Below, one piece after another: positions 1 through 37,203 of a stretch of 37,772 nucleotides of DNA (its first letter is position 1; every line of letters starts with the position of its first letter). The translations under genes and the position numbers were made by a program. This stretch comes from a virus (Duplodnaviria; Heunggongvirae; Uroviricota; Caudoviricetes), in IMG/VR virus record IMGVR_UViG_2690316076_000005, positions 1 to 37,772 of that record; one strand, given 5' to 3'. Below the pieces are notes generated by a model that worked only from the letters and a program-made list of their open reading frames with translations, was not told the origin of the DNA and did not search any database.

Positions 1-20
1 CACTGTTTATCCATACAGTT
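1..20 (+). promoter_or_regulatory. LexA (SOS) box 1 upstream of dinI-like gene
   Basis: cactgtttatccatacagtt carries CTGT-N8-ACAG at 3-18, matching the LexA box core. Confidence 0.55.
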
Positions 21-28
21 AAAAATAA

Positions 29-48
29 TACTGTATACAAACACAGTA
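29..48 (+). promoter_or_regulatory. LexA (SOS) box 2, near-consensus
   Basis: tactgtatacaaacacagta versus consensus TACTGTATATATATACAGTA; lies 13 nt upstream of the ATG and just before the SD gaggg (51-55). Confidence 0.75.
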
Positions 49-22284: not shown

Positions 22285-22363
22285 TTAGCCCCCTCTTAAT
22301 TGCTGTTGGTCCTCTCAGATATGAGGGGAAGGGATCTTAATGACAGTCTGTTTATTATTTCAG

Positions 22364-22621
22364 TCAAACACTACCCTGTTGATGATTTCTCAGAAGCGAA
22401 CTTGACTCCCAGGGGAAACTCAACTTTCCGTTAAAACCACCAGCAGACATTCGTTCAATTTCCACAGAAATATCACTGAGCCGTTCTTCAAGCTCTGCTT
22501 TTTCTTTTACCAGACGGTTATAGCGGCTTAGATGAAGCTTTTGCTGCTCCAGCCAGTCTTCAAGCTGTTCAACAGTCATACCAGGGTTAAAAAAATATGG
22601 CTGCTGCTTTTCGCCCTGCAT
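22364..22621 (-). CDS. hypothetical protein, first gene after the late terminator
   Basis: Start placed at the internal ATG with SD ggagg; 86 aa with a coiled-coil-like C-terminal half. Confidence 0.4.
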   Translation of the reverse strand: MQGEKQQPYFFNPGMTVEQLEDWLEQQKLHLSRYNRLVKEKAELEERLSDISVEIERMSAGGFNGKLSFPWESSSLLRNHQQGSV

Positions 22622-22640
22622 TATTGACCTCCAGAAAAGC

Positions 22641-22661
22641 AAAAACCCCGCCGAAGCGAGG
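22641..22661 (-). terminator. intrinsic terminator (tR-prime-like) between the Q-like gene and the late genes
   Basis: Minus-strand RNA CCUCGC-UUCG-GCGGGG (UUCG tetraloop, one G-U pair) followed by UUUUU. Confidence 0.5.
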
Positions 22662-22711
22662 TTTGTTATGATTTCGTTAACGGCAGACATACAAAGCCCA
22701 TCGTTAGGAAA

Positions 22712-22740
22712 ATCCTAACCAGATTTTTTGAAAAATGCAA
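22712..22740 (-). promoter_or_regulatory. candidate late promoter (pR-prime-like)
   Basis: Minus-strand TTGCAT, 17-nt spacer, TAGGAT; the transcript would end about 60 nt later at the terminator; small hairpin gttagg..cctaac over the -10/+1 region (possible Q-utilisation site). Confidence 0.35.
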
Positions 22741-22771
22741 GAATCATGTCGCTATCTTCGGCGAAAATCAT

Positions 22772-23524
22772 TTATCTCGTCACTTTTCTTAATTGCGCCT
22801 CAGCATATGCTTCTTCCTGCCAGCACTTTGTCACCAGTTTATCAATGACATCTGCATATCCTTTGTACCACTGATAATCCGTCAGGTCTGGTACCAGCTT
22901 CTGGACATGATGCCGCGCCAGTGTGGTTGGTAAACGGCTAAACCGGTTTCCATTGCAACGCCCACAAATCTTATAAACAGGCATGCCATGAAGCCGGGTT
23001 CTTTTTTCATCCAGGACAATACCTTTGCCCTTACACCCTCTGCACGCTGTGCTGACTTCTCCCTTACCATGACAATGCTGACATAGTTCCTTCACCCACT
23101 CTTCCTTGATAACAGATTCCCCGTTTCTGGAGTGTTTCACCACTTCGCGCAATACATTATGAAATCCCGTACCTGCACAATGCTCACAGCGAGCCTTACT
23201 TGCCGCAGATCTGGAATAATCAGCAAAGGCAAAATTCACAAGGTAAGGAATGATCTGTAGCCGGGTTTCTTCACTCAATTTATTCAATGTCGGGTTATCC
23301 AGTGCCATCGCGTAATTGAGCAGACCTTCAATCGCAAACTGAGGATCCTGAACACCAACTTTTGCCAGGAATAAGGCAAACCCAAGCGGTGCTTTCGACT
23401 GCACCATCCCCTGCGCAGCCATCACATCCGTAATCGTTAAACCACCTGAGCCTGTCGCCGGTGCGTCATCGCTCAATTTTGGAGATTTTGGGGAGTAATA
23501 TTTTGGTAAGGCTTCAAGGTTCAT
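22772..23524 (-). CDS. Q-like late-gene antiterminator (QuuQ/YdfT-like)
   Basis: Start moved to the ATG with SD ggaga; 250 aa; four CxxCxGxG-type zinc-finger repeats (CEHCAGTG, CQHCHGKG, CRGCKGKG, CGRCNGNR); position between the early genes and the late promoter. Confidence 0.6.
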   Translation of the reverse strand: MNLEALPKYYSPKSPKLSDDAPATGSGGLTITDVMAAQGMVQSKAPLGFALFLAKVGVQDPQFAIEGLLNYAMALDNPTLNKLSEETRLQIIPYLVNFAFADYSRSAASKARCEHCAGTGFHNVLREVVKHSRNGESVIKEEWVKELCQHCHGKGEVSTACRGCKGKGIVLDEKRTRLHGMPVYKICGRCNGNRFSRLPTTLARHHVQKLVPDLTDYQWYKGYADVIDKLVTKCWQEEAYAEAQLRKVTR

Positions 23525-23537
23525 GCTCGTTCTCCAC

Positions 23538-24533
23538 TTACGCCAGTACGCCAATTGCCAGCGCACGATCGATAAAACGAAATATCAGCTCCAGCTGGGA
23601 GCCATACTTCTCTTCAAATGCCACGGTATCCGCATGCAGCTCGTCGTGATGCTTTCTGCACAAAGGCAACACAAAGAGGTCATGCGCTTTTGTTCCCATT
23701 CCACCCTGACCGTGACCTATCAGGTGGTGGGGATCATCAGCAGGCTTACCACAACATGCACACGGCTGTGTCTTAACCCAGCGCGTGTACTTTTCATTAA
23801 CCCAGCGGCGACGTTTTGGGCGTAACATAAAAGACTCCGGCGACTCCGGATCCACTTTCAGCGCCAGCACCTTTTTCGCTTTATCCTGGATAATGCTGGT
23901 GGCAGGAACCGAAGGCACAAGGTCACTCTCCCGGGTGACAGACGGCACAACAGGCTTCGGTAATCTCAGTGCCTTACGGGCTGCACTTTCCGGTAAGGCA
24001 TCCGCCAGATCATTACGAACCAGCCACCAGCACAGTTCCGGCATTGTCACAACGTGACTGTCATCAAAACCGAGATCCCGACGCACAACAGACAACACCC
24101 AGCGGGCACAGTTATCCGTTGCCATTGATTCCAGCCGTTCCGTGAATTGATCGCGCAGCTGGTTATCACAGTGCCAGCACAGACGGATTGCGCCCGGAGC
24201 GTGTCGCATTGTGGTCATGTTCTCGCTGTGCCAGTCGGAATGAGGCCACTGGCAGCCCTTTTCACGAAGTAACCAGCTTTCAAGACATTCCACGCCACCA
24301 GCACGACGGATCACTGCCTCATTGCGGAACACGGCCCGAACAGCAGGATCATCCGCCAGCGGTTGTGATGCCGCGGGAACGGCACCACTGGCGAAAGATG
24401 AATAACGTTCCGGCTCAGGCTCCAGCAGTACACGCCCCTGCATAAACAGGGGCATCAGCTCTGAACCTGGTCTGAACAATACGATCCCCATACGCGGGGC
24501 TATTTCAGGGGTCAGTAGTGCTCTCACGGTCAC
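23538..24533 (-). CDS. DUF968-like prophage protein with C-terminal Cys/His motif
   Basis: 331 aa; C-terminal CACCGKP...HHLIGHG...LCRKHHDELH; commonly found next to Q in lambdoid prophages; start could be the GTG or the internal ATG. Confidence 0.5.
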   Translation of the reverse strand: MTVRALLTPEIAPRMGIVLFRPGSELMPLFMQGRVLLEPEPERYSSFASGAVPAASQPLADDPAVRAVFRNEAVIRRAGGVECLESWLLREKGCQWPHSDWHSENMTTMRHAPGAIRLCWHCDNQLRDQFTERLESMATDNCARWVLSVVRRDLGFDDSHVVTMPELCWWLVRNDLADALPESAARKALRLPKPVVPSVTRESDLVPSVPATSIIQDKAKKVLALKVDPESPESFMLRPKRRRWVNEKYTRWVKTQPCACCGKPADDPHHLIGHGQGGMGTKAHDLFVLPLCRKHHDELHADTVAFEEKYGSQLELIFRFIDRALAIGVLA

Positions 24534-24534
24534 C

Positions 24535-25344
24535 TCAATGAACGGTATCGAGCAGCTTTAACAGCTCAGGGAATCGGGATTCGAAGAAATGCGGCTGCGT
24601 CTCGCGCGGATTTGCGGGACTGGTGATGTTCTTGCCGAACATGCAGCCTTTCGCTGTCAGCGACCAGAATTTTTTGATGTTGTTAATCGCGGTACGGCTG
24701 TATCGTTCGCGCTGCTCGACGATCCCCAGCTTCACCATCTGGTGATATGCCTGATTAGCCGTCAGGCGGATACCATACTGTTTCAGCAGTGCACTCAGTG
24801 ACAGCGTGGGGCGGCTTGAGCCATCAGGCGCGTCAGCAGGAGCATCAATGGCATAGCGCGGTGCCAGATTCGGTAAGCCAACAGCCTCCTGGAGTTTCTG
24901 ACAGGCCCCAAGCACAGATGAGTTAGACAGGTTTAACTCCCGACGCATAAAGTCCAGCAGAATCACGCCAGCCTGCATCTTGTCAGCAGCCTGTCCGGAT
25001 AATTTTTCCGGTGCGCTGGTTACCATGTCGAAAGTACGGATCACCTTCAGATGGAATGACGGGCTGATCCACATTGCATAGGCATACACCAGTTCTTTGC
25101 AGACATACGTCCCCTGGTTATTTCCGCCATTAATGACGCTAACTGGTTGATTTTGTTCCAGAGGCGGAATTCCACCCTCGGTGAAAAGTTGTTCAATCAA
25201 TTCACAGGTTTGCTTATTGGAGAGCCAGTATTTCGGGCGGTTTTTTTGTTCTCCCCCGGCTGCCCTGTGCAGATCGTTCAGGCTGTAACGACCATAAGCA
25301 TCACGACGAACTTCAATACCATCAATGACCATCAGATTATTCAT
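24535..25344 (-). CDS. KilA-N domain protein
   Basis: 269 aa; N-terminal VIDGIEVRRDAYGRYSLNDLHRAAGG...KYWLSN matches the KilA-N DNA-binding domain; ATG with SD gaggag. Confidence 0.7.
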   Translation of the reverse strand: MNNLMVIDGIEVRRDAYGRYSLNDLHRAAGGEQKNRPKYWLSNKQTCELIEQLFTEGGIPPLEQNQPVSVINGGNNQGTYVCKELVYAYAMWISPSFHLKVIRTFDMVTSAPEKLSGQAADKMQAGVILLDFMRRELNLSNSSVLGACQKLQEAVGLPNLAPRYAIDAPADAPDGSSRPTLSLSALLKQYGIRLTANQAYHQMVKLGIVEQRERYSRTAINNIKKFWSLTAKGCMFGKNITSPANPRETQPHFFESRFPELLKLLDTVH

Positions 25345-25363: not shown

Positions 25364-25753
25364 TCAGGCGGCTGCACCCGCCGTTTTCTTGTACTTACTG
25401 ATAGTGATCTCGACCTTCCCTTTCGGGATAACCGGTCCCCACTCCACCAGCATTCTTTTCACCTGTCTGTCGTCTTCCCACACACCCGCGTGGGTCAGGG
25501 CGTCAAACAGCGCCTTGTTATAGTTGTCCAGATCGCGGATCCGGTTATCCGGAGGAAACAACACGATCTCCACTGAAGCAGGTGCCGACGTTGGTTTTGG
25601 CAGACGACGTAACTGCTCAACTATTGCTGCGCACGCCGCGCTCTGAAATTTTCGCCCCGCCGCGCTTATCAGGCTCTTACCAGCAAATTCCCCTTTGTTG
25701 GGGTGTCGCCAGTACGAGTTCACGCTGGGCGGGAAAGGCAGGATCAGCTTCAT
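25364..25753 (-). CDS. rusA: RusA-family Holliday junction resolvase
   Basis: 129 aa; PPSVNSYWRH...DLDNYNKALFDALTHAGVWEDDRQV matches RusA motifs. Confidence 0.85.
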   Translation of the reverse strand: MKLILPFPPSVNSYWRHPNKGEFAGKSLISAAGRKFQSAACAAIVEQLRRLPKPTSAPASVEIVLFPPDNRIRDLDNYNKALFDALTHAGVWEDDRQVKRMLVEWGPVIPKGKVEITISKYKKTAGAAA

Positions 25754-26076
25754 ACTTTCAGGCCTCTCTCATGTAACCAGTGGGCTGCACGCAGCCTGGC
25801 GTTTTCCTCACCGGCAAGCAGTGAGCGGATAATCCCGACCGCCTCGCTGTCGTCGTCCTTCACCGCGGTATGAAGAGTGATACCCCGGGCCACGCCACGC
25901 TTTATCGTGATGACGCCTTTTTTCTCCAGTGCGCGAAGATGTTCCACCGCTGCATTCACTGAACGGTATCCCAGCATGGTTGCCACCTCCTGATTGGTTG
26001 GCGGGAAGCCACGTTCTTTCTGGTAAGAAATCAGCATATCCAGCACCTGCTGCTGGCATTGAGTTAACGTCGTCAT
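25750..26076 (-). CDS. LexA DNA-binding-domain-like protein lacking the S24 peptidase domain
   Basis: 108 aa; LTQCQQQVLDMLISYQKERGFPPTNQEVATMLGYRSVNAAVEHLRALEKKGVI aligns along its length with the LexA N-terminal winged helix; no Ser/Lys protease domain; ATGA overlap with the upstream methylase gene. Confidence 0.65.
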   Translation of the reverse strand: MTTLTQCQQQVLDMLISYQKERGFPPTNQEVATMLGYRSVNAAVEHLRALEKKGVITIKRGVARGITLHTAVKDDDSEAVGIIRSLLAGEENARLRAAHWLHERGLKV

Positions 26077-26726
26077 GCCGCCATCTCCCTGACCAGTTTT
26101 TCCGCCTGCTGGCGAACCTGCGCCAGAAACGCCTCACCACATGCCTCAAGTTCATCGCGCCAGATGTAGCTGATTGCCGGTCCCTTCCAGGTCTTGTCGA
26201 AAACAGCAATAGCACCAGCGAAGAAAGCGCCTGTCGGCACCTGCTTCTCGTCCTTCGGTATAAACCAGGCAGGCAGTTCAAAACCAATACGCCCGCGAAT
26301 AAAAGCAATATGATCTGCATCTTCCGGCCACCACACTTCGCTGGTGGCCGCTTTGATCAGGAAAACATAGCGCCCGCCCTTATCACGCATGGCACTGGCA
26401 TGTTTCATGATGTAACGCATGCCGGTGATGTATTGCCCCTCATGCTGACTGGCGCGGCTGTATGGGGGATTACCAAAGGCAGCACCTTTAAGCTCCGCAA
26501 GACGTTCTGACCAGTCATGCGCCAGCGCGTTATCTTCCGCCGTGTAATACGCGGCACATTTGGCGTTATCACCGTCAGTAAACAGATCCAGAACAAACGG
26601 GCCAAACAGAGTGTTAATTCCCCAGAAAATGTTGTCCGGCGTGCGCCACTGATCGCCCACTTCCTTCAGTTCATGGGCTGGTTTGTTCCGCAGTTCCACC
26701 AGCTCCTGGCAATATTTATTACTCAT
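26073..26726 (-). CDS. DNA N6-adenine methyltransferase (phage Dam-like)
   Basis: Start at the internal ATG overlapping the upstream stop; FGNPPY catalytic motif. Confidence 0.8.
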   Translation of the reverse strand: MSNKYCQELVELRNKPAHELKEVGDQWRTPDNIFWGINTLFGPFVLDLFTDGDNAKCAAYYTAEDNALAHDWSERLAELKGAAFGNPPYSRASQHEGQYITGMRYIMKHASAMRDKGGRYVFLIKAATSEVWWPEDADHIAFIRGRIGFELPAWFIPKDEKQVPTGAFFAGAIAVFDKTWKGPAISYIWRDELEACGEAFLAQVRQQAEKLVREMAA

Positions 26727-27214
26727 TAAGCCCCCACGTAATTCCCTGACAGATACCACTCATCACCCGATACAGCGCGCTTGCTGCTTTTCCGTAAACA
26801 CTGCTCACGACGCGCCAGAAAATTGTTTCGTTCTGGCTGGGAGTGGCTTTCTCGGAATGCCGCCATCCACACCGTTGCAGCACGACGGTATAAGCCCCTG
26901 GACTCCAGTTCTTCCGCCTGGCGGGTCAGGCACAAAATCACCCGGGGATCGTTAGTGCCGACATAGAAATTGCGCACAGGTCTGGTTTCACGAACTGGTT
27001 GTGGTTCCGGCTCCTGCGCTCTCTCGGTCAGGCGTGGGAAATGTCTGCGTGTATCTCCTTCACAACGGTGAGCCACACGCCCACTCTGACGTAACTTGCT
27101 TGCTGACTGCAGAACGCGCTGCCGTGAGTAACCTGCAAAAGCATCCGCAATGTCTCCGGAAGTACATCCCGGATGGGCTTCAATGAATTTCTGAACTTCA
27201 TTCAAAAGACTCAT
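26726..27214 (-). CDS. putative PerC/ANR-like regulator with N-terminal winged-helix-like region
   Basis: LTRQAEELESRGLYRRAATVWMAAF resembles the PerC-family core; assignment from memory, weak. Confidence 0.4.
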   Translation of the reverse strand: MSLLNEVQKFIEAHPGCTSGDIADAFAGYSRQRVLQSASKLRQSGRVAHRCEGDTRRHFPRLTERAQEPEPQPVRETRPVRNFYVGTNDPRVILCLTRQAEELESRGLYRRAATVWMAAFRESHSQPERNNFLARREQCLRKSSKRAVSGDEWYLSGNYVGA

Positions 27215-27216
27215 GA

Positions 27217-28209
27217 TCACCCCCTGAATCCTGCCGGGATCTGGCTGTAGTCCACGTTGTCGTAACTGGCTTTGAAGTACGGGTCTTCACGTTTTTCTGT
27301 GTGCGTGCTGACGGACGGCGATAAGCGCAGGGAAAGCTCATCCCATTTTTCCCGCAACTTCGACGGGCTGAGCACGTTACGGCACCAGAACGGATCGCGG
27401 CTGACGCGGCTGTACATCTCGCAGATTTGTTTGTGAGTACGACCATCCTGCACACACATCAGGCGAATTTCGTTTGCCCATGCTGTCCAGTTCGGCTCTT
27501 TGGGACGAACCACCTCGCCGTCACATTCGGCGGCCTGCTCGTACAGGGCGATGATTTTTTTCCAGAGCCACTGTGCGCAGGTCAAATCATCCTGCGTTCC
27601 CCACTGGCGCTTTTTAGGGCTGAATACAACCGCATCAGGATGGCGAGTTAAAAACTCCTGTTCAGCCGTTTGCATGTCCGGTTGCGAAGCGTCCGGACGA
27701 GAAGAGGTTTTATTCTCTGTAGTAATCTCTGTTGTATTCTCTGTAAGATCATTGGGCCATTTTGACCCGATGACAGCGTGTCGTTTTGAACCAATGGATC
27801 GTGTCATTTTGCGCCCATCCATCAGGTCACTTTGACCCGATGGAGAAGTGCATTTTGACCTGATGGATTCGTTCACTTTGACCTCTTCTAAAAGCTCACT
27901 TTCATAGTTGATCGTGTAGAAGTTGGTCATGTCACGCTTCGATTTATTGAGTTGCTCGCGACGCAAAACCCCAAGTGATTTCAGGCTTGCAAATGTGCGT
28001 TTCAGAGTGGACTCTGACCAGAACGGAAACTGCTCCAGCCACTGTTCTGTCGTGTTATAAACCCAGCGAATTCCGCCATGCTCAGTGCCTGAATTCGTTT
28101 CATTCAGCCAGTAATGAAGCTGCTGCAACACAATTGCCTCATTCAGACCAATACGGCATGCAAGATCACGATTTATCACAATGGGCTGGGATGTCATTAA
28201 CAGGCTCAT
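27217..28209 (-). CDS. replication initiation protein (O-like N-terminus, DnaT-like C-terminus)
   Basis: 330 aa; iteron array inside the gene; C-terminal region resembles the primosomal DnaT-like domain seen in prophage replication proteins. Confidence 0.7.
   Translation of the reverse strand: MSLLMTSQPIVINRDLACRIGLNEAIVLQQLHYWLNETNSGTEHGGIRWVYNTTEQWLEQFPFWSESTLKRTFASLKSLGVLRREQLNKSKRDMTNFYTINYESELLEEVKVNESIRSKCTSPSGQSDLMDGRKMTRSIGSKRHAVIGSKWPNDLTENTTEITTENKTSSRPDASQPDMQTAEQEFLTRHPDAVVFSPKKRQWGTQDDLTCAQWLWKKIIALYEQAAECDGEVVRPKEPNWTAWANEIRLMCVQDGRTHKQICEMYSRVSRDPFWCRNVLSPSKLREKWDELSLRLSPSVSTHTEKREDPYFKASYDNVDYSQIPAGFRG
27758..27883. repeat. iteron array (candidate origin of replication) inside the replication gene
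   Basis: Six copies of about CAyTTTGACCyGATGG at about 23-bp spacing (27758, 27782, 27804, 27828, 27851, 27874) plus one inverted copy (27817-27827). Confidence 0.7.
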
Positions 28210-28218
28210 GACCGACCT

Positions 28219-28557
28219 CTATTTCCCTGAATTTACGACGAAACTGTTCGAGCGGACTGAAGCATTCATGCTCATAGCCTTCGCGGAGGTAGATAACCCG
28301 TTGTGTTTCCGGTTCCCAACGAATGACTCTGACGGGCACTCCGTAGTGATCTTTGAACCAGCGGTTAACTTGTCGCAAAGGACTGTCTCCTTCTGCCGGT
28401 TGAAATCACCCACAGCCCACTCAGCAAAGCTGTGGGTTACAATTTCCCTGTCACCTGGTACATTCACTGCATAGCAATATTCCACCTTCGCTTTTCCACC
28501 CGGTACAGGAAGCGCAATCAGTTGCGAGCGACGGTAGTGTGTTGTTAAACTGTTCAT
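28219..28557 (-). CDS. hypothetical protein
   Basis: 112 aa; ATG with SD ggaga and ATGA overlap with the upstream gene; stop 10 nt before the replication gene start; an alternative-frame ORF overlaps it. Confidence 0.35.
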
Positions 28558-29105
28558 GCGTTAGTTTCTCCACAGTCACGACACGCCACGGCGCCCGGAG
28601 CTGCACACTCGCGGGCGTCACTACTTTCTGAAACGCAAAAGATTTTGTAGACCAGTGCTGCATGCTCCTGCAGCTTCGAAATTGAGAGGTACAGCTCATC
28701 GTTAATTGCTGTCTTCTCATGCGGTTCCACTACACCGTCTTCAATTGCTGAACGAATCTGTTTTGAATAACTGCCGATCTGTTCAATGACTTCCAGCAGG
28801 CGTTGGTTGATATCGGCGTTGTCCACATCCTCGACGTCAGGAAGAGACACAAAGACGCCATTTGCAGACTGCGCCACAGCGTCAGCAATGAAGTGAGTGC
28901 CACCAGCACGCTGTAAAACCATTGCCCATCCCAGCGGGAAAATCTGATCGCCATCTGCACGAAGGCGGTTGAATAAAGCGTTCTCTGTTACATCCAGCCA
29001 GTCAGCAGCTTCAGCGTAACCCCCAGGCAATGCCGCGATAGTTTTTCTGACAGCTTTCACGTACCACTCGGGTTGTTTTTCCACTTTCCAATGATGCTTA
29101 CCCAC
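28554..29105 (-). CDS. early regulatory protein in the cII position (possibly CP76/CII-like)
   Basis: 183 aa; GTG start with strong SD aggagg; sits between cro and the replication genes. Confidence 0.4.
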
Positions 29106-29358
29106 GGCTTACCTCCTGTTCCTGTGGTTTAAACCCATTCTGGTTTTGGCTAGATTGAAAACGTGCCGGATAAAGAATCTGCATTTCGCTGATTTCACCC
29201 TTAAAAAAATTGGCCAGACGTTCTGCAAGATCGATAGATGGAATTTGTTCCAGTCTTTCAATACGACTTAGCGTCGCTGGATTGACCTGAACGCCCGCAG
29301 CAACATGCTGCAAAGTAAATCCGTGCGCCTTACGCACATTCCGTAATGGTGATTGCAT
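29098..29358 (-). CDS. Cro-like HTH repressor
   Basis: 86 aa; helix-turn-helix GFTLQHVAAGVQVNPATLSRIERLE; divergent from cI. Confidence 0.8.
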   Translation of the reverse strand: MQSPLRNVRKAHGFTLQHVAAGVQVNPATLSRIERLEQIPSIDLAERLANFFKGEISEMQILYPARFQSSQNQNGFKPQEQEVSRG

Positions 29359-29455: not shown

Positions 29456-30148
29456 ATGAACATAGGAAATCGAGTCAGACAACTTCGCCAGGCGAAGAAC
29501 ATGAAAATCGCCGATCTCGCTGAAGCAATAGGAGTGGATGCGGCGAATATCTCGCGCCTCGAAACAGGTAAGCAGAAACAATTCACTGAACAAGCCCTGA
29601 GTAATATTGCCAGGAGCTTAGGTGTTGATATTGCTGATCTCTTTACCTCAGACCTCAAAAGTAATACTGTATGTAAAAACAGTATTAGTGAGGATGTTGC
29701 GCAGGTGAAGGATGTATTCCGTATTGAAATGCTGGATGTCAGTGCCAGTGCGGGAAATGGCCTTATCCAGGGCGGTGATGTCATTGATGTGATTCATGCC
29801 ATTGAATACAGAACTGATAATGCTGTATCGATGTTTGGTGGACGACCAGCAAATCACATTAAAGTTATCAACGTTCGTGGGGACAGTATGTGTCCAACCA
29901 TTGAGCCAGGAGATCTCATCTTCGTTGATATCAGTATCAATCAGTTTGATGGGGATGGTATATATGTATTTGGTTTTGATGATAAAATTTACGTCAAACG
30001 ACTGCAAATGATACCTGATAAACTGCTGGTAATTTCTGATAATCAGATTTACCGCGAATGGGGAATTACCAGCGAAAACGAACACCGGTTTATGGTCTTT
30101 GGAAAGGTCTTAATCAGTCAGTCACAGACCCTTAAGCGACACAATTAA
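29456..30148 (+). CDS. CI-type repressor (HTH plus S24 LexA-like autopeptidase domain)
   Basis: 230 aa; N-terminal HTH; C-terminal VRGDSMCPTIEPGDLIFVD and later K typical of S24 peptidases. Confidence 0.9.
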   Translation: MNIGNRVRQLRQAKNMKIADLAEAIGVDAANISRLETGKQKQFTEQALSNIARSLGVDIADLFTSDLKSNTVCKNSISEDVAQVKDVFRIEMLDVSASAGNGLIQGGDVIDVIHAIEYRTDNAVSMFGGRPANHIKVINVRGDSMCPTIEPGDLIFVDISINQFDGDGIYVFGFDDKIYVKRLQMIPDKLLVISDNQIYREWGITSENEHRFMVFGKVLISQSQTLKRHN

Positions 30149-31689: not shown

Positions 31690-31754
31690 TATCGTTTTTA
31701 ATTAACTGATTATTTATCTCATCACTGAATATCTTTATATAGTGAGGACTTATT

Positions 31755-32579
31755 ATGTCTCAGAACTTAGACGCAACCGCAATTAATCAAATCCATGCCC
31801 TTATTTCTGCTCAGGGTGTTAATGAAATTATCAGTAAGATTGGTGCCGATGCTGTGGCATTGCCTGAGCATTTCCGCATTCATGATCTGGAAAAATTTAA
31901 TTTAAATCGCTTCCGTTTCCGTGGTGCGCTTTCCACTGCCAGCATCGATGACTTTACCCGTTATTCTAAAGATCTTGCAGATGAAGGCACCCGCTGCTTT
32001 ATCGATGCTGATAATATGCGTGCCGTCAGTGTGCTTAACCTGGGTACTATTGATGAGCCAGGTCACGCAGATAACACCGCCACACTCAAACTGAAAAAGA
32101 CAGCACCGTTCTCTGCTCTGTTGTCTGTTAACGGCGAGCGTAACTCCCAGAAGTCACTAGCAGAATGGATTGAAGACTGGGCCGACTATCTTGTGGGCTT
32201 TGATGCTAATGGTGACGCTATTCAGGCAACAAAAGCGGCTGCGGCTGTCCGTAAAATCACGATTGAAGCAAACCAGACCTCTGATTTTGAAGATAATGAC
32301 TTCAGCGGCAAACGCTCCCTGATGGAGTCTGTCGAAGCGAAGACCAAAGACATTATGCCAGTGGCATTTGAATTTAAATGCGTTCCGTTTGAAGGTCTGA
32401 AAGAACGTCCGTTTAAATTACGCCTCAGTATTATCACTGGCGATCGTCCTGTACTGGTTCTGCGCATTATTCAGCTGGAGGCGGTGCAGGAAGAAATGGC
32501 TAACGAATTTCGTGATCTGCTTGTTGAGAAATTCAAGGACAGCAAAGTAGAAACCTTTATTGGTACTTTCACCGCCTGA
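31755..32579 (+). CDS. YfdQ-like protein (DUF2303)
   Basis: 274 aa; size and synteny with the HD-domain gene as in CPS-53 yfdQ-yfdR (memory). Confidence 0.55.
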
Positions 32580-32706
32580 TTTCATTACTGCAAATGCCCC
32601 TGCGGGGGCATTTATGGAAACGTAATTTACTCAATAATCGCCGGATGGTGAGGGATTCTTTTTGCCAGAATTCAGCGCGGTGCAGCGCATATACGTGGAG
32701 AACAAA

Positions 32707-33243
32707 ATGTCATTTATTAAAACTTTTTCCGGGAAGCATTTTTATTATGACAGGATAAATAAAGACGACATCGATATTAACGATATCGCGGTTTCCCTTT
32801 CAAATATCTGTCGCTTTGCCGGTCATCTTTCGCACTTCTACAGCGTCGCCCAGCATGCGGTGCTTTGCAGCCAGCTGGTGCCGCAGGAATTTGCTTTTGA
32901 AGCGTTAATGCATGATGCAACAGAAGCGTATTGCCAGGATATTCCCGCTCCACTGAAACGCCTTCTTCCTGACTATAAACGGATGGAAGAAAAAATAGAC
33001 GCCGTAATCCGTGAGAAATACGGGTTACCTCCTGTTATGAGCACGCCAGTGAAATATGCCGATCTCATTATGCTGGCAACCGAACGCCGTGATCTCGGGC
33101 TTGATGATGGTTCTTTCTGGCCTGTACTGGAAGGTATCCCGGCAACAGAGATGTTCAACGTGATTCCACTGTCACCAGGCCATGCCTACGGGATGTTTAT
33201 GGAACGTTTTAACGAGTTATCGGGGTTACGCAAATGCGCATGA
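32707..33243 (+). CDS. HD-domain phosphohydrolase (YfdR-like)
   Basis: Start at the internal ATG (MSFIKTFSGKHFYYD); HD motif ALMHDATEAY; 178 aa. Confidence 0.75.
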   Translation: MSFIKTFSGKHFYYDRINKDDIDINDIAVSLSNICRFAGHLSHFYSVAQHAVLCSQLVPQEFAFEALMHDATEAYCQDIPAPLKRLLPDYKRMEEKIDAVIREKYGLPPVMSTPVKYADLIMLATERRDLGLDDGSFWPVLEGIPATEMFNVIPLSPGHAYGMFMERFNELSGLRKCA

Positions 33244-33650
33244 ATGTTTTCGAAATGGAAGGGTTTCTTCGCGGGAAATGTGTACCGCGAGATCTGAAAG
33301 TGAACGAAACAAACGCTGAGTACCTGGTGCGTAAATTTGCTGAAGCTGAGGCCAAGTGCGCGGCGCTGGCAGTGGAGAATGCAGGAATAAAGTCTGCAAT
33401 TCCCCAACCACGGGATATTGAGGATGACAATGACAATATGGATGACGTATCTCTTGCTGAAGATTTCGGGTTCAATCATGCAATAGAACGGATGAGGAGA
33501 CGGATTCCTGAAACACCAGCCACCGACGCTTTCCTGGCTGAAGTACGGGCGCAGGGCGTGGAGATGTTTGCGGAGTGTGCATACACACTTGAACATCATG
33601 ATCACGCAGTAGCTTTTGCCGCCGAGCTACGTAAAGGAGGCAACCAGTGA
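33240..33650 (+). CDS. hypothetical early protein
   Basis: 136 aa from the ATG overlapping the upstream stop (ATGA). Confidence 0.45.
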   Translation: MNVFEMEGFLRGKCVPRDLKVNETNAEYLVRKFAEAEAKCAALAVENAGIKSAIPQPRDIEDDNDNMDDVSLAEDFGFNHAIERMRRRIPETPATDAFLAEVRAQGVEMFAECAYTLEHHDHAVAFAAELRKGGNQ

Positions 33651-34366
33651 GCAAGATTGATTATCAGGCACTGCGTGAAAAGGCAGAGAAAGCAACTAAA
33701 GGAAGCTACATCGTAGGGCATACATCTGTTAACCAGCACGGCAATTTAACAGGAGTTTTTGTTTGTCAAAAATGGAAAGGAGAACCCGGTGGTGTGATTG
33801 CGGAATGTCATGTTAACTGCCTGGTTGAAACAGATATTCAGGCTTATGCAAACGCTGAATTTATTGCTGCCTTTAATCCAAAGGTTGCTTTGGCACTACT
33901 GGATGAACGGGAAAGAAACCAGCAGTACATCAAACGCCGCGACCAGGAGAACGAGGATATTGCGCTAACGGTAGGGAAGCTGCGCGTTGAGCTTGAGGAA
34001 GCAAAATCAAAACTCAACGAGCAACGCGAGTATTACGAAGGTGTTATCTCGGATGGGGGTAAGCGTATTGCTGAACTGGAAAAACAATGCGCCGAATGGG
34101 AGCGAAAAGCATTAAGCAACTTTGAAGAGTGTGCTGCGATGGCTGAACGTATCGAAGAGATGAGTAAGCAAAGTTGCGAAGCCCGGGAGCGTGATTTATT
34201 TGAATCATGGGTAATGCATTCAATTTGTATTTCCAAATCGACGCTTGAAGGATTGCGCACCGAAACTGGATACCGTAATGCGACCTTATCAGGAACAGAC
34301 TTCAACCGCATGTGGGAACAATGGAAATCTATCCGCGCCGCAGGAATTCGCAAAAGGGAGATTTAA
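33647..34366 (+). CDS. Ea22-like coiled-coil early protein
   Basis: 239 aa; N-terminus MSKIDYQALREKAEKA and coiled-coil middle typical of Ead/Ea22-like prophage proteins. Confidence 0.5.
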   Translation: MSKIDYQALREKAEKATKGSYIVGHTSVNQHGNLTGVFVCQKWKGEPGGVIAECHVNCLVETDIQAYANAEFIAAFNPKVALALLDERERNQQYIKRRDQENEDIALTVGKLRVELEEAKSKLNEQREYYEGVISDGGKRIAELEKQCAEWERKALSNFEECAAMAERIEEMSKQSCEARERDLFESWVMHSICISKSTLEGLRTETGYRNATLSGTDFNRMWEQWKSIRAAGIRKREI

Positions 34367-34397
34367 TAATCATGATGTACCGTAAAGAGGAAGCCAA

Positions 34398-34889
34398 ATG
34401 ACAGCACTCAACAAACAGGTGCTGCTGAGCACCGATAAACACGCAAATCAGCACCGACTTTCTCGCCTTACCATGGAAGTGCATAGCGATGAGCTTCGTA
34501 TTATAGCGTCAGCAGTAGAGAGCTATACCGACGAGTTGATAGCAGCGCTGGAAGCCGCAGAGAAGCGCAACGCAAAATTACAAAGCGAGAATGCATACAT
34601 CCGAAACCGGTTCAAAGAACTGGACCTGTTAATCGGGAAAAACATTCTGGTCATGCAGGCTGCGATTATCGAATGGCAGGCAACTGGCGACGCTAAAAGC
34701 GGACTGGCATGGATTTATAACACACTGTTTGGCCCTGGCGAATTGCCGGACGAATCTGAGAAAGATGCTCAGGCCTACTTTAATCGCAAATATGCACCGA
34801 TTGACGAAAAGCTTATGGCGCTTCACAAGTGGTTTTGGGAACAAAGTGAAGCCGAGCGCGCCGCTGGCATTCGCATAAAAGGAGAGTGA
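34398..34889 (+). CDS. Ea22-like / hypothetical coiled-coil protein
   Basis: 163 aa; N-terminus MTALNKQ; C-terminal AAGIRIKGE resembles the AAGIRKREI end of the previous gene. Confidence 0.45.
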   Translation: MTALNKQVLLSTDKHANQHRLSRLTMEVHSDELRIIASAVESYTDELIAALEAAEKRNAKLQSENAYIRNRFKELDLLIGKNILVMQAAIIEWQATGDAKSGLAWIYNTLFGPGELPDESEKDAQAYFNRKYAPIDEKLMALHKWFWEQSEAERAAGIRIKGE

Positions 34890-34890
34890 T

Positions 34891-35082
34891 ATGAACGGAC
34901 AAATCTCAATTGTTCGACCGGGAGCATGTGACGATCGCGAGATACGAATGATTATTCGTCTGGCGATGGGGAAAACAATAACAGCTCTCATTACTCCAGA
35001 AAATCTCGCATTAGCTTTAACCGGAAAGTCAGACCTGCCAGTAGAGCTAAAGCTGCGAAATGTTGAGATTAAGGTGAAATAG
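34891..35082 (+). CDS. hypothetical small protein
   Basis: 63 aa, tightly packed in the operon. Confidence 0.4.
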   Translation: MNGQISIVRPGACDDREIRMIIRLAMGKTITALITPENLALALTGKSDLPVELKLRNVEIKVK

Positions 35083-35084
35083 CT

Positions 35085-35633
35085 ATGACCACTATTACCA
35101 AAGAACGTATCGAATTATTCATTAAAAATCCGCTTGAAAACGGGCTTACTCGTGGCGAACAAATGGAACTGGCACGAATTGCACTGGCATCACTGGGAGC
35201 AGAACCTGTAAGCCAAACTTACAACTTGCCAGAATTAATCGAAGGCATGGAGGTTTCCATTGATGTAAGCACTTGTGATGCGGATTTAGGTAATCGCTAT
35301 TTCGGTACCGTCACCGAGGCGTTAGAACTTGATACTGCCAAGAATGGTTACATCCTCCTAGTTCAGGACGCAGAGCCAAACTTCGATGTAAATGGCAACT
35401 CTCCGGGAACTCCGGATAGTTGGATAAGCTGTAGTGATCGAATGCCTGAAAAGGGCCAGAACGTGCTTATTTCGGTGAATTTCGATAGCTCTCAGGTTGA
35501 ACCGCTAATATGCTCCGCACGCTATACCGGAAGCACCTTTCGGCGCGGAGATGCAACGATTAAGCCGGGTAATGGTATTGAGCAAGCAACTCACTGGATG
35601 CCGCTACCGGAACCGCCGCTGGAGGTGAAGTGA
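35085..35633 (+). CDS. DUF551-domain protein
   Basis: C-terminal THWMPLPEPP motif typical of DUF551. Confidence 0.6.
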   Translation: MTTITKERIELFIKNPLENGLTRGEQMELARIALASLGAEPVSQTYNLPELIEGMEVSIDVSTCDADLGNRYFGTVTEALELDTAKNGYILLVQDAEPNFDVNGNSPGTPDSWISCSDRMPEKGQNVLISVNFDSSQVEPLICSARYTGSTFRRGDATIKPGNGIEQATHWMPLPEPPLEVK

Positions 35634-36783: not shown

Positions 36784-37203
36784 TTACTCATCATCAATAG
36801 ATGATACGCAATATTTATTTTTAAATTTAAGGTTCTTTGGCGTAACTTCATCAGAGATATCAAAACCGTCCAGAATTCTATTGAATGTAGCTTCTGGCAT
36901 ATCATCATGAACAGAAATCTCACCCGATCGCAGCTTTCTAACCATGTTATCCACTCGCCAAATTATAGCTTCAGCGTAAACAACATAACTTGGATGCTTG
37001 ATAAAGCGATGATCACCAGAATTCAAGACGCAAGACGGATCGTGGGGGACACCATCCTTGATACTAGAAATATTAACAACTAAAACACAATAACAATCGT
37101 TAACGGGGTAATAAACAGGATCATTACAAATCACATGAAGATGATTGCATGGTCCAGTTGGGGCAAGCACAGTTCCTTTCCTGTATGGCTGATAATCCGT
37201 CAT
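36784..37203 (-). CDS. unrecognised 139-aa Cys/His-rich protein, candidate toxin/effector partner
   Basis: ATG overlaps the stop of the Panacea-like gene (ATGA); AT-rich; C19/H21/H23/C26/C37/C39 cluster; no motif recognised. Confidence 0.5.
   Translation of the reverse strand: MTDYQPYRKGTVLAPTGPCNHLHVICNDPVYYPVNDCYCVLVVNISSIKDGVPHDPSCVLNSGDHRFIKHPSYVVYAEAIIWRVDNMVRKLRSGEISVHDDMPEATFNRILDGFDISDEVTPKNLKFKNKYCVSSIDDE

Follow-up and report, generated by a model that had tools for sequence, protein, structure and literature searches.

What a LexA DNA-binding domain without its protease does in the lytic operon of a lambdoid prophage is the question raised by a small gene of the viral record IMGVR_UViG_2690316076_000005 (Caudoviricetes), of which positions 1 to 37,772 were analyzed (hereafter, the window). 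An initial annotation had described a standalone LexA DNA-binding domain at 25750-26076 and proposed that it could occupy SOS boxes or, as a fallback, act as a phage-specific regulator. The open reading frame (ORF) is real, with an ATG start and 108 amino acids (aa); its strand, missing from that annotation, is the minus one. The reading to which we lean, with considerable reserve, is that of a LexA-derived, operator-binding regulator of the delayed-early phase which RecA cannot inactivate, probably dimeric through its C-terminal tail, and with a specificity particular to its phage lineage.

The N-terminal part of the protein is a LexA winged helix. The Pfam family LexA_DNA_bind (PF01726) matches residues 1-65 over all 65 positions of its profile (E=2.9e-19), with a score of 69 bits against a curated cut-off of 23.7, which places the protein within this family. 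BLASTP against Escherichia coli LexA gave 43% identity over 90 aa, and phmmer against 1lea an E-value of 7e-16. In the AlphaFold2 (AF2) model, the winged helix consists of helices 6-22, 28-35 and 40-52 and strands 56-58 and 66-68, and Foldseek aligned 67-68 of its residues to LexA chains of the DNA complex 3jso, at 50-51% identity and a root mean square deviation of 1.0 Å. Residues 39-50, which form the recognition helix, read SVNAAVEHLRAL. Over its full length (1-108), the protein also matches positions 1-106 of the 106 positions of the PHROG 362 profile (E=1.4e-59), of which it is thus a member.

On the contrary, Peptidase_S24 (PF00717) had no match in the Pfam scan of the 108-aa protein, and the NCBIfam equivalog of LexA (TIGR00498) was aligned only at its positions 1-91 of 203, with 70.8 bits, below the cut-off of 110.95. 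Judged by TIGR00498, the protein is not LexA proper: it has the winged helix and lacks the S24/dimerization domain with its Ser119/Lys156 dyad, as well as the conserved Ala-Gly cleavage site. It further differs from E. coli LexA in carrying V in place of E44, in having a 40-residue tail of two helices instead of the C-terminal domain, and in being a phage-borne gene of the nin region. Since the S24 domain, the dyad and the Ala-Gly site are missing, neither self-cleavage stimulated by activated RecA nor dimerization of the LexA type is possible. The absence of an autoprotease, as claimed initially, is hence borne out, and with it the non-cleavability of the proposed LexA-like binder.

The claim that the protein aligns with the LexA winged helix along its length holds for residues 1-68, that is, approximately 63% of the protein, and fails for residues 69-108, which form the family-specific tail. 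Beyond residue 68, only a weak alignment to the linker and cleavage region of LexA continues, up to about residue 90, where the phage protein shows a residual LLAGE opposite the LexA cleavage site VAAGE. This is probably a trace of an origin by truncation, and as such it would agree with a view of the gene as a remnant in decay, now functionless, that goes back to a gene for full-length LexA or for a cI-type repressor. However, the AG of this pseudo-cleavage site is not conserved, relatives having LLANEE or LLVGEE, and a helix is predicted for the segment; no self-cleavage site is recognized, and a vestigial site as a functional feature was rejected because of this variation. The remnant view is very improbable on other grounds too. 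The ORF is intact, preceded by a Shine-Dalgarno-like sequence and coupled to its neighbors on both sides, it has kept its length and sequence across 2,223 genomes, and the pattern of the tail is kept in relatives down to approximately 40% identity. In comparison with a Citrobacter homologue, the proportion of nonsynonymous changes (pN) is much lower than that of synonymous changes (pS) in both halves of the protein, with pN/pS values of 0.16/0.72 for the N-terminal domain and 0.26/0.97 for the tail, an indication of purifying selection.

The location of the gene points to the time of its expression. The prophage is lambdoid and SfV-like, and the gene lies in its tightly packed delayed-early (nin) region, on one strand with cro, a CII-like gene, an unassigned ORF, an O-like gene, PerC, Dam, RusA, KilA-N, DUF968 and Q, in this order, the LexA-like gene being placed between Dam and RusA. 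This is the gene order of a pR-type delayed-early operon, so that "early-right operon" was a fair description. The coupling to the Dam-like methylase gene is confirmed, since TCAT at 26073-26076 of the given strand reads ATGA on the coding strand, and a second ATGA overlap, with rusA, which was absent from the initial annotation, is found at the other end of the gene. According to the names of the neighboring genes, RusA is a near-constant partner of the LexA-like gene in E. coli prophages. Promoter prediction found no promoter-like site 5′ of dam or of the LexA-like gene in the window, so that the gene is most naturally taken to be expressed with the delayed-early transcript. The role of a CI/LexA-type immunity repressor was discarded for this gene; it is filled by a separate cI with helix-turn-helix (HTH) and S24 domains, 3.4 kb upstream of the LexA-like gene, which itself is placed within the lytic operon. 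The PerC-family gene that adjoins dam on its 5′ side in the same operon is a second accessory regulator in the nin region.

According to the reading preferred here, an ancestral LexA repressor would have lost its S24 self-cleaving and dimerizing domain, with the conserved two-helix tail standing in its place. The protein would be translated from the pR-type nin-region transcript, coupled to Dam and RusA and, because its gene is on the delayed-early transcript, it would appear only after derepression of the prophage or infection. LexA dimerizes through its C-terminal domain; because this domain is missing from the phage protein, the tail is regarded as a putative dimerization element that would yield a homodimer. 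Through its LexA-type recognition helix and its wing, this dimer would bind a palindromic operator made of LexA-like (CTGT-type) half-sites, and the protein would be a transcription factor that activated RecA cannot inactivate. Its operator specificity would follow the phage lineage and would not be a faithful copy of that of the host LexA, comparable to gp6 of phage GIL01 with its own palindrome. Dimerization, DNA binding, type of operator and sign of regulation are what we infer for this protein.

The recognition helix bears directly on this specificity. The residues of LexA listed as contacting DNA are S39, N41, A42, E44 and E45 (PMC3091678, a secondary source). The phage allele retains four out of these five, with E44 replaced by V, and in addition the H46, K53, R64 and G65 of LexA. 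The retained E45 is the residue whose change to K makes LexA binding-defective. These similarities would suit a different role, in which the protein is a faithful surrogate of LexA at SOS boxes, that is, an uncleavable binder of CTGT-N8-ACAG which re-closes SOS promoters after activated RecA has destroyed the host LexA. Its targets would be the host SOS genes, the dinI-like gene of the prophage, a box inside cI and the LexA-controlled antirepressors of rival prophages. Such a surrogate role is conceivable but doubtful, and the same doubt applies to its extension, in which the protein, together with the DinI-like protein of the prophage, forms a phage-made SOS off-switch during lytic growth.

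Across the tail-bearing lineages the scaffold is invariant at L4, Q8, P25, P26, S39, L50, K53, I56, R64, G65 and I66, and positions 42-46 of the helix differ. The lineage variants include SVNAAVEH, SVNSAVEH, SVNTIAGH (Citrobacter), SPNAATDM, SGNAAFEH, SPNAVALH (most of the Klebsiella type, with E45 changed to L), SPNAAVAH, SQNTVFIH and more. Close relatives already show A42S, H46Q/N and E45G, and other lineages have L, A, D, I or T at position 45. Among the top 150 hits, E44 is kept in every E-type recognition helix (NAAE[EDQSA]H), mostly of LexA-sized proteins; in the tail-bearing lineages it is replaced without exception, which argues against the surrogate. Enterobacterial hosts share one LexA box, and a faithful binder of this box would not be expected to vary at positions 42-46 from lineage to lineage. 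A variable helix on a conserved scaffold fits the pattern of regulators that co-evolve with their operators. Moreover, the spacing of the half-sites would be set by a dimer interface different from that of LexA.

The SOS boxes of the window itself were a further argument for occupation of such sites. Three perfect CTGT-N8-ACAG sites are present versus 0.45 expected. Two of them, both perfect as had been claimed, precede the dinI-like gene at 62-310 on the plus strand (Pfam DinI, E=1.1e-19), which gives the prophage an SOS modulator of its own; the third is inside cI. The DinI-family gene resembles an SOS-inducible prophage moron beside the tail-fiber end, and its promoter may be lost at the edge of the window.

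The box inside cI lies 211 nt into the gene, in the part that encodes the linker joining the HTH and S24 domains, and has 9-nt perfect arms (TAATACTGT and ACAGTATTA). It is found at the same codon positions in cI alleles of 69-76% identity, that is, in ST64B (sb38), Flotzy, Klebsiella Kp4872-1 and Citrobacter phiNP. Third-codon-position identity is 0.88 within the box versus 0.47 gene-wide, and since the neighboring linker residues vary, this indicates a selection acting at the DNA level. The examined stretches of ST64B, Flotzy, Kp4872-1 and phiNP contain no LexA-like gene; SfV carries the LexA-like gene with a different cI which lacks the box, as does ymfK of the K-12 element e14 (the SfV cI allele). 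Co-inheritance of box and gene was consequently rejected. Because they occur separately, the box is not a dedicated partner of the LexA-like protein, and it is most likely a site of the host LexA, a point against the surrogate. A conserved TTTAC[CA]-17-TACTGT could be an internal sense promoter.

The linkage of the wider family to SOS boxes was followed in 259 viral-contig loci from five subfamilies, counted in non-redundant contexts; a strong box was defined by an exact CTG/CAG and no fewer than 10 matches at the 14 remaining consensus positions, with a background of 0.041 per kb. Within 2 kb upstream of the gene, strong boxes are found in none of the 38 contexts of the window type, in none of 38 for the P0122 type and none of 69 for the P0128 type, but in 2 out of 9 for the type of Edwardsiella phage EPP-1 and in 20 out of 29 for the P0132 type of Klebsiella, Enterobacter and Cedecea (approximately 2.4 expected). 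The usual layout in the latter is an SOS box (-604 to -583), dinI (-575 to -348), orf82, an 82-aa ORF (-301 to -44), the LexA-like gene with an N-terminally extended product, an intervening ORF, DUF968 and Q. In Enterobacter sp. Ap-916 the promoter TTGCAA-17-AATAAT is directly followed by ACCTGTACATTCATACAGTA. In EPP-1, the box is located within the spacer of the promoter CTGAAA-17-TACAAT, which drives a two-gene unit ending with the LexA-like gene.

These arrangements connect some members of the wider family with DinI and with expression timed by the SOS response, and they count in favor of the surrogate. Nevertheless, because most of the P0132-type proteins read SPNAVALH, with L instead of E45, the box of this type is more simply read as control of dinI by the host LexA. 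A P0132-type module would place Q and some of the nin region under a promoter that LexA controls. In the window-type loci, boxes are confined to two places: 23 of 80 loci have the cI-internal site, at -2.9 to -4.5 kb, and 18 of 80 a site at +3.9 to +5.1 kb, where a late-region methyltransferase begins. An example of the second is SfV, where the SOS box TACTGTAAAAATAAACAGTG at 34172-34187 overlaps the start of the DNA methyltransferase orf48, downstream of Q; this gene is absent from the window. Altogether, occupation of SOS boxes by the LexA-like protein is still plausible but has lost some ground, and the fallback of a phage-specific regulator is no less likely.

Several results weigh against the regulator with an operator of its own. 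The retention of S39, N41, A42 and E45 fits SOS-box binding equally well. A de novo operator scan, which covered CTGT/ACAG half-sites (either orientation, spacers of 0-16) and, in 20-31.9 kb, inverted repeats, gave for the window and its relatives no operator other than canonical SOS boxes and chance-level hits, and non-coding DNA able to accommodate a linked operator is nearly absent from the nin module. Confidence in the AF2 model is moderate, with a mean predicted local distance difference test score of 76 and a predicted template modeling score of 0.51, and the linker of the tail (70-75) is modeled with low confidence. Searches for a Pfam or Protein Data Bank relative of the tail returned none, and the hydrophobic moment of its helices is unremarkable, no better than that of shuffled sequences; neither homology nor amphipathicity of the tail was accordingly retained as evidence of dimerization. 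Among single candidates for an operator, an excess of ACAG-N13/14-CTGT was rejected as unrelated coding hits, the palindrome CCCACAGC-N12-GCTGTGGG at 28408-28437 lacks conservation as an element, the palindrome in dam at 26325-26350 encodes a conserved Dam motif, and the one-mismatch boxes at 22303 and 22348 are no more than expected by chance.

The same failure to find an operator would be in line with an accessory function in DNA metabolism, in which the winged helix aids the recombination, replication or packaging functions of RusA, the DUF968/HNH nuclease and Dam, and the protein resembles other small DNA binders of the nin region. The gene is almost always coupled by ATGA to rusA and stays beside DUF968 across genera. 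However, nin regions are mosaic and adjacency need not mean a shared function; the characterized proteins with a LexA DNA-binding domain are all sequence-specific regulators of transcription, and lineage-specific variation at positions that contact bases is typical of specific recognition. An accessory function is on these grounds improbable. A component of a defense system was also rejected, as PADLOC gave only a marginal match of the winged-HTH type (CARF3 model, E=3.6e-4, 18 bits).

For the regulator preferred here, the closest characterized analogue is gp6 of the Bacillus phage GIL01, likewise a phage early-gene product that is essentially a LexA DNA-binding domain. This truncated LexA homologue binds its own palindrome, which overlaps the -35 element of the late promoter P3, and activates P3 (PMC6182141). 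No alignment with GIL01 ORF6 (gp6) was obtained by BLASTP at E≤100, and homology was rejected; for this reason the two proteins are taken as independent derivations, from a Gram-positive and an enterobacterial LexA, respectively. Unlike the phage protein with its conserved tail of 40 aa, gp6 has 66 aa and no tail. GIL01 is a tectivirus whose lysogeny runs via the host LexA, whereas the present phage has its own cI (S24) and Q-dependent late transcription. Palindrome and half-site scans found no gp6-like candidate site near pR′ or elsewhere. LexA(Ind-) mutants and the N-terminal fragment of LexA are also similar, in that DNA damage cannot abolish their LexA DNA-binding activity, but they are host proteins with the native helix, whereas the phage protein has a divergent helix, a C-terminal extension and phage-timed expression. 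Natural N-terminal cleavage fragments of LexA are cleared by ClpXP.

The family, already catalogued and very common, is no new find. Of 5,426 complete E. coli genomes, 2,223 (approximately 41%) carry the 327-nt gene at no less than 90% identity and 80% coverage, in up to four copies per genome, with Dam or PerC upstream and RusA downstream. Identical or near-identical proteins are annotated in 61 phage records, and the family occurs in SfV (orf42, 97% identical), SfII, SfIV, mEp460, cdtI, Ayreon, phi1720a-02 and Stx2a and Stx2c phages; 100% identical copies are those of vB_EcoM-689R6, 1720a-02, Stx2a_1447 and Stx2a_WGPS2. Stx2a and Stx2c phages and strains of ST131 and O104:H4 are among the carriers. 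The members of PHROG 362 and of the RefSeq LexA family (SfV orf42, mEp460, Stx2a/Stx2c, cdtI and phi1720a-02) show no difference from the present protein and share its context of Dam or PerC, LexA-like gene and RusA. PHROG 362 is entered as "transcriptional repressor" and the RefSeq proteins as "LexA family protein/transcriptional regulator". Some records have "SOS-response repressor and protease LexA" or "RecA-mediated autopeptidases"; these automatic names are contradicted by the sequence and, because the protein has no protease, misname it in places. No functional study of the family was found in the open-access full-text literature, and in a preprint on phi1720a-02 as a "bully phage", which carries an identical copy, only Cro was examined.

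Relatives with the tail are found in prophages of Cronobacter, Kosakonia, Enterobacter, Cedecea, Klebsiella, Salmonella and Citrobacter, all named hosts being Enterobacteriaceae; a locus search of genome contigs with closer alignment gave Shigella and Citrobacter loci only. The order LexA-like-(x)-RusA-DUF968-Q is constant in prophages of the E. coli, Enterobacter, Klebsiella and Cedecea type. In many proteins of approximately 140-260 aa (P0127, P0129, P0136, P0138, P0139, P0143 and others), the LexA DNA-binding-domain profile is matched in two separate stretches. This would be consistent with tandem LexA DNA-binding domains, that is, with a built-in pseudo-dimer.

Features of the LexA-like gene, its operon and the SOS boxes in the window, with positions, strand and the basis of each assignment.
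Feature	Position	Strand	Basis
Gene with LexA DNA-binding domain only, stop codon included	25750..26076	-	ORF list, Pfam PF01726, PHROG 362, pN much lower than pS
Winged HTH of LexA type, codons 1-68	25873..26076	-	AF2 model, Foldseek, phmmer
Family-specific tail, codons 69-108 (linker 70-75, helices 75-87 and 93-103)	25753..25872	-	AF2 secondary structure, conservation, pN<pS
ATGA overlap, Dam-like methylase stop / LexA-like start	26073..26076	-	Direct sequence reading
ATGA overlap, LexA-like stop / rusA start	25750..25753	-	Direct sequence reading
Shine-Dalgarno-like GGGAG, 8 nt 5′ of the LexA-like ATG, within the 3′ end of dam	26085..26089	-	Direct sequence reading
Upstream neighbor, phage N6-adenine methyltransferase (Dam, PF05869)	26073..26759	-	Pfam E=2.3e-45
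Downstream neighbor, RusA Holliday-junction resolvase (PF05866)	25364..25753	-	Pfam E=1.6e-14
Two perfect SOS boxes, CTGTTTATCCATACAG and CTGTATACAAACACAG, candidate operators (unproven for the LexA-like protein)	3-18 and 31-46 (within 1..48)	+	Upstream of the dinI-like gene
Near-consensus SOS box TACTGTATGTAAAAACAGTA, candidate operator (unproven for the LexA-like protein)	29665..29684	+	Within cI
Immunity repressor cI (HTH and Peptidase_S24)	29456..30148	+	
cro-like	29098..29358	-	
CII/CP76-like	28554..29105	-	
ORF without assignment	28219..28557	-	
O-like replication gene	27217..28209	-	
PerC-like (PerC-family, YfdN-like transcriptional activator)	26726..27220	-	
KilA-N	24535..25344	-	
DUF968/HNH	23538..24533	-	
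Q antiterminator	22772..23566	-	

Some observations concern other parts of the prophage. A pR′-like promoter follows Q (22640-22770, minus strand), with TTGCAT-17-TAGGAT and the palindrome TTAGGA-TTT-TCCTAA over its -10 element, and a strong intrinsic terminator is located just 3′ of Q at 22643-22664. Because this terminator runs inside the listed ORF 22364..22690, the 5′ part of that ORF is probably non-coding, and a shorter ORF may begin at 22621. At the end of the prophage, a SocA/Panacea-domain antitoxin gene (PF13274, 37200-37772, minus strand) has its ATG at the last base of the window, so that the true start may lie beyond, and it is overlapped by an ORF of 139 aa (36784-37203, minus strand) with no Pfam match; together they look like a toxin-antitoxin pair of the PanA type. 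A close relative of the prophage in E. coli GCU-H1 (31732-35518) is integrated approximately 2.5 kb from the host lexA-dinF, and a prophage next to lexA is also listed for an O157 outbreak strain (PMC8190617). This adjacency is probably coincidental and reflects the geography of attachment sites.

SOS signaling governs prophage induction, the release of Shiga toxin, mutagenesis and persistence. If the protein were a surrogate of LexA, many lysogens would carry an SOS brake insensitive to damage; SOS toxins, division arrest and mutagenesis would be shut down and the LexA-controlled antirepressors of rival prophages silenced, and toxin output, responses to antibiotics and competition between co-resident prophages could shift. 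If, on the other hand, it has an operator of its own, it would be an unmapped node of lambdoid regulation and the second independent domestication of LexA's DNA-binding domain by a phage, after gp6 of GIL01.

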